This document shows positions 1 through 1,342 of a stretch of 1,342 bases of DNA, piece after piece (position 1 is the stretch's first letter; the number at the start of each line of letters is the position of its first letter). Source of the stretch: Escherichia coli (lineage in GTDB: Bacteria > Pseudomonadota > Gammaproteobacteria > Enterobacterales > Enterobacteriaceae). The stretch lies in the NCBI RefSeq assembly GCF_003334815.1, contig NZ_QOWO01000099.1. One strand, written 5' to 3'. The translations under genes and the position numbers were made by a program. The notes below the pieces were generated by a model. The model was not told where the DNA came from and did not search any database. It saw nothing but the letters and a program-made list of their open reading frames with translations.

Positions 1-24
1 CCATAAGCGCTAACTTAAGGGTTG
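1..24. repeat. Left terminal inverted repeat (IRL) of IS186
   Basis: Seen in sequence: 1-24 CCATAAGCGCTAACTTAAGGGTTG is the exact reverse complement of 1318-1341 (CAACCCTTAAGTTAGCGCTTATGG), 24/24 matches. Complementarity ends at the next inward base. Confidence 0.92.
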
Positions 25-50
25 TGGTATTACGCCTGATATGATTTAAC
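22..50 (+). promoter_or_regulatory. Candidate weak sigma70-like promoter for the transposase, partly overlapping IRL
   Basis: Seen in sequence: TTGTGG (22-27; 3/6 to TTGACA), a 17-bp spacer, then TTTAAC (45-50; 4/6 to TATAAT). An alternative -10-like TATGAT (40-45; 5/6) has no well-spaced -35. Both are weak matches. Inference only: IS transposase promoters commonly overlap the terminal repeat and are weak. The implied transcript start would be very close to the start codon, and no convincing Shine-Dalgarno precedes GTG 51 or ATG 57. Confidence 0.25.
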
Positions 51-56
51 GTGCCG

Positions 57-1169
57 ATGAATTACTCTCACGATAACTGGTCAGCAATTCTGGCCCATAT
101 TGGTAAGCCCGAAGAACTGGATACTTCGGCACGTAATGCCGGGGCTCTAACCCGCCGCCGCGAAATTCGTGATGCTGCAACTCTGCTACGTCTGGGGCTG
201 GCTTACGGCCCCGGGGGGATGTCATTACGTGAAGTCACTGCATGGGCTCAGCTCCATGACGTTGCAACATTATCTGACGTGGCTCTCCTGAAGCGGCTGC
301 GGAATGCCGCCGACTGGTTTGGCATACTTGCCGCACAAACACTTGCTGTACGCGCCGCAGTTACGGGTTGTACAAGCGGAAAGAGATTGCGTCTTGTCGA
401 TGGAACAGCAATCAGTGCGCCCGGGGGCGGCAGCGCTGAATGGCGACTACATATGGGATATGATCCTCATACCTGTCAGTTCACTGATTTTGAGCTAACC
501 GACAGCAGAGACGCTGAACGGCTGGACCGATTTGCGCAAACGGCAGACGAGATACGCATTGCTGACCGGGGATTCGGTTCGCGTCCCGAATGTATCCGCT
601 CACTTGCTTTTGGAGAAGCTGATTATATCGTCCGGGTTCACTGGCGAGGATTGCGCTGGTTAACTGCAGAAGGAATGCGCTTTGACATGATGGGTTTTCT
701 GCGCGGGCTGGATTGCGGTAAGAACGGTGAAACCACTGTAATGATAGGCAATTCAGGTAATAAAAAAGCCGGAGCTCCCTTTCCGGCACGTCTCATTGCC
801 GTATCACTTCCTCCCGAAAAAGCATTAATCAGTAAAACCCGACTGCTCAGCGAGAATCGTCGAAAAGGACGAGTAGTTCAGGCGGAAACGCTGGAAGCAG
901 CGGGCCATGTGCTATTGCTAACATCATTACCGGAAGATGAATATTCAGCAGAGCAAGTGGCTGATTGTTACCGTCTGCGATGGCAAATTGAACTGGCTTT
1001 TAAGCGGCTCAAAAGTTTGCTGCACCTGGATGCTTTGCGTGCAAAGGAACCTGAACTCGCGAAAGCGTGGATATTTGCTAATCTACTCGCCGCATTTTTA
1101 ATTGACGACATAATCCAGCCATCGCTGGATTTCCCCCCCAGAAGTGCCGGATCCGAAAAGAAGAACTAA
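57..1169 (+). CDS. insL: IS186 transposase InsL (IS4-family DDE transposase), 370 aa
   Basis: Seen in sequence: uninterrupted ORF from ATG at 57 to TAA at 1167-1169; the ORF track opens 6 nt upstream at GTG 51, giving 372 aa. Catalytic residues read directly from codons: D at 399-401 (LVDGT), D at 564-566 (ADRGF, matching the D-x-G-F/Y pattern I recall for IS4-family transposases), E at 990-992 inside CYRLRWQIELAFKRLK, i.e. Y(969-971)-x2-R-x3-E-x6-K(1011-1013). The long spacer (~140 aa) between the second D and the E is typical of the IS4/Tn5 type. From memory: protein begins MNYSHDNWSAILAHIGKPEEL as in annotated E. coli InsL, so ATG 57 is the preferred start. No frameshift or premature stop. 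Confidence 0.88.
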   Translation: MNYSHDNWSAILAHIGKPEELDTSARNAGALTRRREIRDAATLLRLGLAYGPGGMSLREVTAWAQLHDVATLSDVALLKRLRNAADWFGILAAQTLAVRAAVTGCTSGKRLRLVDGTAISAPGGGSAEWRLHMGYDPHTCQFTDFELTDSRDAERLDRFAQTADEIRIADRGFGSRPECIRSLAFGEADYIVRVHWRGLRWLTAEGMRFDMMGFLRGLDCGKNGETTVMIGNSGNKKAGAPFPARLIAVSLPPEKALISKTRLLSENRRKGRVVQAETLEAAGHVLLLTSLPEDEYSAEQVADCYRLRWQIELAFKRLKSLLHLDALRAKEPELAKAWIFANLLAAFLIDDIIQPSLDFPPRSAGSEKKN

Positions 1170-1317
1170 CTCGTTGTGGAGAATAACAAAAATGGTCATC
1201 TGGAGCTTACAGGTGGCCATTCGTGGGACAGTATCCCTGACAGCCTACAAAACGCAATTGAAGAACGCGAGGCATCGTCTTAACGAGGCACCGAGGCGTC
1301 GCATTCTTCAGATGGTT

Positions 1318-1341
1318 CAACCCTTAAGTTAGCGCTTATGG
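1318..1341. repeat. Right terminal inverted repeat (IRR) of IS186
   Basis: Seen in sequence: perfect reverse complement of positions 1-24. Position 1342 (G) lies outside the matched repeat and is presumably the first flanking or target base. Confidence 0.92.
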
Positions 1342-1342
1342 G

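Follow-up and report, generated by a model that had tools for sequence, protein, structure and literature searches.

The locus studied here raises the question of where an insertion sequence ends when almost nothing of its surroundings can be seen. The window, by which we mean the whole stretch of 1,342 nucleotides of Escherichia coli DNA that was analysed, is filled nearly to its edges by one mobile element, and the points at issue are which element this is, which of the outermost bases belong to it and which to the target, and whether this copy is able to move. Our analysis makes it almost certain that the window holds an intact autonomous IS186, with a mobile unit at positions 2 to 1340 composed of two perfect 23-bp repeats, the 370-aa transposase InsL and a 148-bp tail. 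IS186 is a standard, long-characterised insertion sequence of E. coli, and this copy is already known and holds nothing new. The features on which the argument rests are the following:

1..1, no strand: flanking base derived from the target, closing the left copy of a 10-bp duplication (C of the target C-run); from the junction survey
2..1340, plus strand: IS186 proper, 1339 bp; from identity to MG1655 IS186A/B/C and from off-consensus insertions
2..24, plus strand: left terminal inverted repeat, 23 bp, CATAAGCGCTAACTTAAGGGTTG; from the repeat search and junction survey
37..45, plus strand: possible extended -10 element, TGATATGAT, 12 nt upstream of the insL ATG; proposed by eye
57..1169, plus strand: insL transposase gene, 370 aa; from the ORF list, with a RefSeq CDS at the same coordinates in identical copies
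969..1013, plus strand: IS4-family signature Y305-(2)-R308-(3)-E312-(6)-K319, YRLRWQIELAFKRLK; from a regular expression on the translation
1170..1317, plus strand: 148 bp of non-coding sequence (3' tail) separating the stop codon of insL from the right repeat; no Rfam match
1258..1311, no strand: long imperfect hairpin in the tail; from inverted repeat I2 and RNA folding
1318..1340, minus strand: right terminal inverted repeat, 23 bp; from the repeat search and duplication analysis
1341..1342, no strand: flanking bases derived from the target, the GG with which the right duplication copy begins; from L030, L062 and L098

Identity and distribution of the element

The initial annotation had named the element IS186, and this holds. 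The window is an intact IS186 (also known as IS421; IS4 family), with 100% full-length megablast identity to E. coli records, both chromosomes and plasmids, among the matches listed, and positions 2 to 1340 showed 0 differences over 1339 bp from IS186A, IS186B and IS186C of E. coli K-12 MG1655 (NC_000913.3). A best full-length match to some other IS4-family element had been named as the result that would speak against this assignment; the best match was IS186 itself, and no evidence contradicting the identification was found. IS421 was also considered as a separate element and ruled out, since RefSeq applies the product name 'IS186/IS421 family transposase' to these same K-12 genes, insL1-3, in all three of IS186A, IS186B and IS186C.

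The element is widespread in its host. In a megablast search of 5426 complete E. coli genomes, IS186 was present in 2221 of them, the median being 3 copies and the highest number 22; 863 of its places in these genomes were plasmid-borne. Identical or near-identical copies were also found in 1004 plasmid records, mostly from Escherichia and in addition from Salmonella, Klebsiella, Shigella, Citrobacter and others, as well as in one deposited phage record. In a scan of one genome per species, which returned only 8 stretches and gave no evidence for a wider chromosomal host range, the only complete chromosomal copy was that of Escherichia albertii (98.96% identity), and the other matches were short contigs identical to the ends of IS186 or isolated repeat-like matches. 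Short contigs with 100% identity to IS186 ends occurred in Marinobacter, Kocuria, Bradyrhizobium and Collinsella assemblies (L006, L008, L010, L011 and L012) and are probably E. coli contamination. A 69-kb contig of a Verrucomicrobia MAG (L007:3913-3935) carries a solitary 23-nt repeat of the IS186 type, and no InsL-like transposase was detected there. In K-12, two of the three copies adjoin hok/sok toxin-antitoxin loci, namely hokC/mokC/sokC and hokE/sokE, the two regions being NC_000913.3 14800-17300 (L199) and 606500-609500 (L200).

The ends of IS186

The window contains a perfect 24/24 inverted repeat at 1-24 and 1318-1341, for which the number of such 24-bp repeat pairs expected by chance in 1342 bases is about 1e-9 by our own arithmetic. 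In the first four junctions that were read, all with a C just to the left of the window, the complementarity even seemed to reach 25 bp. Junctions were then surveyed in public collections, which were scanned with a pattern starting at window position 3, so that positions 0 to 2 were not preselected; the 238 ends obtained gave about 144-145 distinct flanks. In 144 distinct flanks, position 2 was C in 142 cases, position 1 in 135 (not C in 9) and position 0, the base just outside the window, in 133, while position -1 was variable and positions -10 to -7 were G in 111-133 flanks.

Canonical targets leave the boundary unreadable, because each base shifted from the element to the flank on both sides lengthens the apparent duplication by two. 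The ends are fixed at C2/G1340 by insertions at off-consensus targets (L003, L100 and L162), in which the duplication cannot be extended through C2/G1340. In L003, an insertion in cynR in a complete genome, the target has a T where G1340 would need its partner, and the duplication stops exactly at G1340. The left junction of L100 reads GGGGATTTACAG followed by CATAAG, and its right junction CTTATG followed by GGATTTACAG and then TCAG; L162 has the duplication GGGTGTGGGA, followed by A instead of C. Positions 0-1 of L100 and L162 are AG and GA, respectively, and the same bases follow the right-hand duplication copy; both copies show exact 10-bp duplications when measured from C2/G1340. For both insertions the empty site could be reconstructed, giving a single uninterrupted match in each case, for L162 in the rusA gene of a prophage (400/400) and for L100 in the transposase gene of ISEc38 (98.8%). 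Departures from C/G at positions 0, 1, 1341 and 1342 match the other copy of the duplication (L030, L062, L100 and L162), as in L030 and L062, where position 1342 is T or A and the left duplication copy has the same base; L098 gave the single right-end junction with a base other than G at 1341. From the off-consensus insertions, therefore, the element spans 2 to 1340 and is 1339 bp long, with 23-bp repeats.

Two wider definitions of the element have to be weighed against these boundaries. If the element ran from 1 to 1341, as initially annotated, it would be 1341 bp long with 24-bp repeats and an 8-bp duplication, a reading in agreement with a repeat that is perfect over 24 bp in the window and with the equally good fit of an 8-bp duplication to canonical targets. 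However, 9 of 144 junctions lacking C at position 1 are too many for an element that is otherwise 99-100% identical, and the AG and GA of L100 and L162, with their exact 10-bp duplications from C2/G1340, also speak against it; an assembly error in L100 is unlikely, since L052 independently shows the same junction. We consider these boundaries extremely improbable. The same very low probability applies to a still longer element of 1343-1345 bp, which would include CCC/GGG ends and duplicate only the 6-7-bp core. The MG1655 features are indeed annotated at 1345 bp, Lee et al. 2016 (PMC5009759) calls the N6/N7 core 'duplicated', and position 0 is C in 133 of the 144 junctions, but such an element is contradicted by the non-C bases at position 1 in those same 9 junctions and the exact duplications of L100 and L162, by the T or A that L030 and L062 share at 1342 with their left duplication copy and by the stop exactly at G1340 in L003.

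With the element defined as 2 to 1340, the 24/24 repeat first described is present in the window, but its 24th pair, C1/G1341, lies outside the element and the true repeat is 23 bp. Consequently the window has three flanking bases (C1, G1341 and G1342) and not the single G1342 that had been reported. Complementarity continuing outward had been proposed as a sign that the true ends lie beyond the window; it does continue outward, with C0 facing G1342 in 92% of junctions, but as target sequence, and the ends lie one base inside those first assigned. Both the 24/24 appearance of the repeat and the C0:G1342 pairing are explained by the preferred target, GGGG(N6-7)CCCC.

The G/C-rich palindromic target blurs the edges at canonical sites, and this also explains why the literature gives lengths from 1338 to 1345 bp and duplications from 6 to 11 bp. 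The features of 1345 bp for IS186A/B/C in MG1655 take in three duplicated target bases per side, the element itself being identical. The IS186 reference X03123 is given as 1338 bp with an 11-bp repeat (quoted in PMC12102499), a length that differs by one base from our definition of 1339 bp, and a duplication of '6 or 7 core nucleotides' is stated in PMC5009759.

Target site and duplication

The target that emerged from the junction survey consists of a G-run at -10 to -7, then a variable N6, and C at each of positions 0 to 2. It reproduces the GGGG(N6/N7)CCCC reported for IS186 (PMC5009759), a motif that the initial annotation had given in the same form. In 34 distinct complete copies the duplication was 10 bp in 22 and 11 bp in 2, and 10 had none. 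The copies with no matching duplication are L004 (plasmid p720632_94), L020, L024, L034, L072, L152, L156, L168, L189 and L190; most of their flanks keep a G-run or C-run half-site, and in L024 the left flank of K-12 IS186B is joined to the right flank of IS186A. These 10 of 34 lie mostly on short-read metagenome or viral contigs, in which the joining of flanks across a 1.3-kb repeat is unreliable, and for this reason we do not read them as rearrangements. They may have arisen by recombination of one IS copy with another, or else be chimeras of short-read assembly; L004 originates from a finished plasmid.

The three flanking bases of the window (C1, G1341 and G1342) fit the canonical target, are common to about 92-94% of junctions and match all three K-12 IS186 loci. 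A source locus was sought from these bases and is not identifiable, as the same bases occur at all three K-12 loci and at most junctions. It had been pointed out at the outset that the insertion context is missing, and we agree: beyond these three bases the flanks are absent, and the locus, the interrupted gene and the replicon are not recoverable from the window.

The InsL transposase and membership of the IS4 family

The window has a single long ORF at 57-1169 on the plus strand, of 370 aa from an ATG or 372 aa from a GTG at 51, which agrees with the full-length transposase first described and matches the RefSeq CDS of identical copies (WP_001300563.1 and NP_414557.1). Residues 107-348 of InsL matched Pfam PF01609 DDE_Tnp_1 (E = 3.6e-26), and the protein scored 133.3 bits with NCBIfam NF033592 'IS4 family transposase', against a curated cut-off of 115. 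The Y-(2)-R-(3)-E-(6)-K signature found in InsL has been defined for region C1 of the IS4 family (PMC2266710).

By motif, the candidate catalytic residues of InsL are D115 (399-401) and D170 (564-566), located in DGT and DRGF motifs, together with E312 (990-992). In addition, the insL reading frame is continuous, in line with the unframeshifted transposase that is one criterion of the IS4 family, and a duplication of 10 or 11 bp in 24 of the 34 complete copies agrees with the duplication of about 10 bp that is another. IS186 thus resembles the IS4-family DDE transposons (Tn5/IS50, Tn10/IS10, IS231 and IS4) in its DDE_Tnp_1 domain and complete YREK signature, as well as in its single unframeshifted transposase gene, its 5'-CA ends and its duplication of about 10 bp. 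It differs in its target, since the palindromic G4-N6/7-C4 is very specific, unlike the looser targets at which IS10 and IS50 insert. A search of solved structures with the InsL sequence gave no relative, the only match being at chance level (E = 0.27), and Tn5 transposase was not detected in it.

Possible expression signals and the non-coding tail

A consensus sigma-70 scan of the window, which requires a -35 hexamer, gave no promoter. The possible extended -10 element upstream of insL (TGATATGAT), which is accompanied by no evident Shine-Dalgarno sequence, would leave insL with a very short leader or with none. The terminator scan of the window returned two terminator-like sites, no more than in shuffled sequence. 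At 768-787 on the minus strand, antisense within insL, a hairpin and the T-run after it (GCCGGAAAGGGAGCTCCGGC TTTTTTATTA) resemble a terminator.

The tail between insL and the right repeat contains the hairpin at 1258-1311, whose RNA fold gave z = -3.8 on the plus strand and z = -4.8 on the minus strand; none of 200 shuffled sequences folded as stably. The E. albertii copy carries the change 1303 A>G, by which a C-A mismatch of this hairpin becomes a C-G pair. Both strands of the window were scanned against Rfam at E <= 1 with no match; no antisense RNA or inhibitor protein was detected for IS186 or is known to us, a further difference from the IS4-family transposons named above. The 148-bp tail may hold functional regulatory structure, a tentative proposal that we regard as rather unlikely, and the candidate for it is the hairpin at 1258-1311, the minus-strand form of which is the more stable. 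If the proposal were true, the hairpin could insulate IS186 from transcription entering via its right end, or it could belong to an antisense transcript controlling the transposase.

Activity and proposed mechanism of transposition

In mutation-accumulation lines derived from MG1655, 68 new IS186 insertions were reported, at a rate of about 0.4e-4 per genome per generation and nearly all at the G4-N6/7-C4 motif (PMC5009759). All three MG1655 copies have the sequence of the window, and therefore the window sequence is the one active in these lines, which supports the earlier view of the element as probably transposition-competent. An intact-looking copy could nonetheless lack activity, if it were silenced, for instance, or relied on another copy, and the lack of a promoter in the consensus scan together with the lack of an obvious Shine-Dalgarno sequence by eye before the insL ATG would fit this. 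Such inactivity is very unlikely, given that none of the three K-12 copies differs from this sequence and that the rate at which IS186 inserts anew in K-12 lines is measurable (PMC5009759). With regard to hotspots, spontaneous IS186 insertions in both orientations have been described in the lon promoter (PMC3045373), and that paper cites SaiSree 2001 for this hotspot; the preference for the lon promoter mentioned in the initial annotation is thus found in the literature, in the paper's own data and in its citation.

In the cut-and-paste transposition of Tn5 and Tn10, the transposon end passes through a hairpin intermediate. By analogy with these members of the family, cut-and-paste hairpin chemistry may be proposed for IS186 as well. 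InsL would bind both terminal repeats and excise the element by DDE-catalysed cleavage via a hairpin intermediate, and insertion would follow at the palindromic GGGG(N6-7)CCCC, with a stagger of 10 bp, or 11 bp where the core is N7, about its centre. The duplicated segment at canonical sites would then begin with GG and finish with CC, and this would explain why the window has a C before the element and GG after it.

Distant relatives and significance of the ends

The overall importance of the window finding is small, and the clarification of the boundaries is a useful by-product of it. Knowing that the element measures 1339 bp and duplicates 10 bp of its target, or 11 bp in some places, is of use solely for clean annotation and for software that calls insertion sites.

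Two IS186-like elements from environmental sequences bear on the ends from a different side. One lies in a JGI metagenome (L078:791-2135) and encodes a transposase 36% identical to InsL; the other lies on a Chloroflexi MAG contig (L009, reverse complement 77-1417), with a transposase 31% identical to InsL. Both share the layout of IS186, with lengths of 1341-1345 bp, an ORF of 365-372 aa followed by a tail of 175-200 nt, and G-run/C-run flanks. Their interiors are unalignable with IS186 at the DNA level and their tails, although also structured, are not homologous to the IS186 tail, whereas their terminal repeats match those of IS186 exactly over 22-23 nt. The terminal repeats are thus conserved far more strongly than the transposase among IS186 and these two elements. 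A near-invariant repeat of 22-23 nt at a transposase identity of 31-36% would suggest that the ends in the IS186 group are under unusually tight constraint, a reading that is separate from that of a regulatory tail and that we put forward with similarly low confidence.
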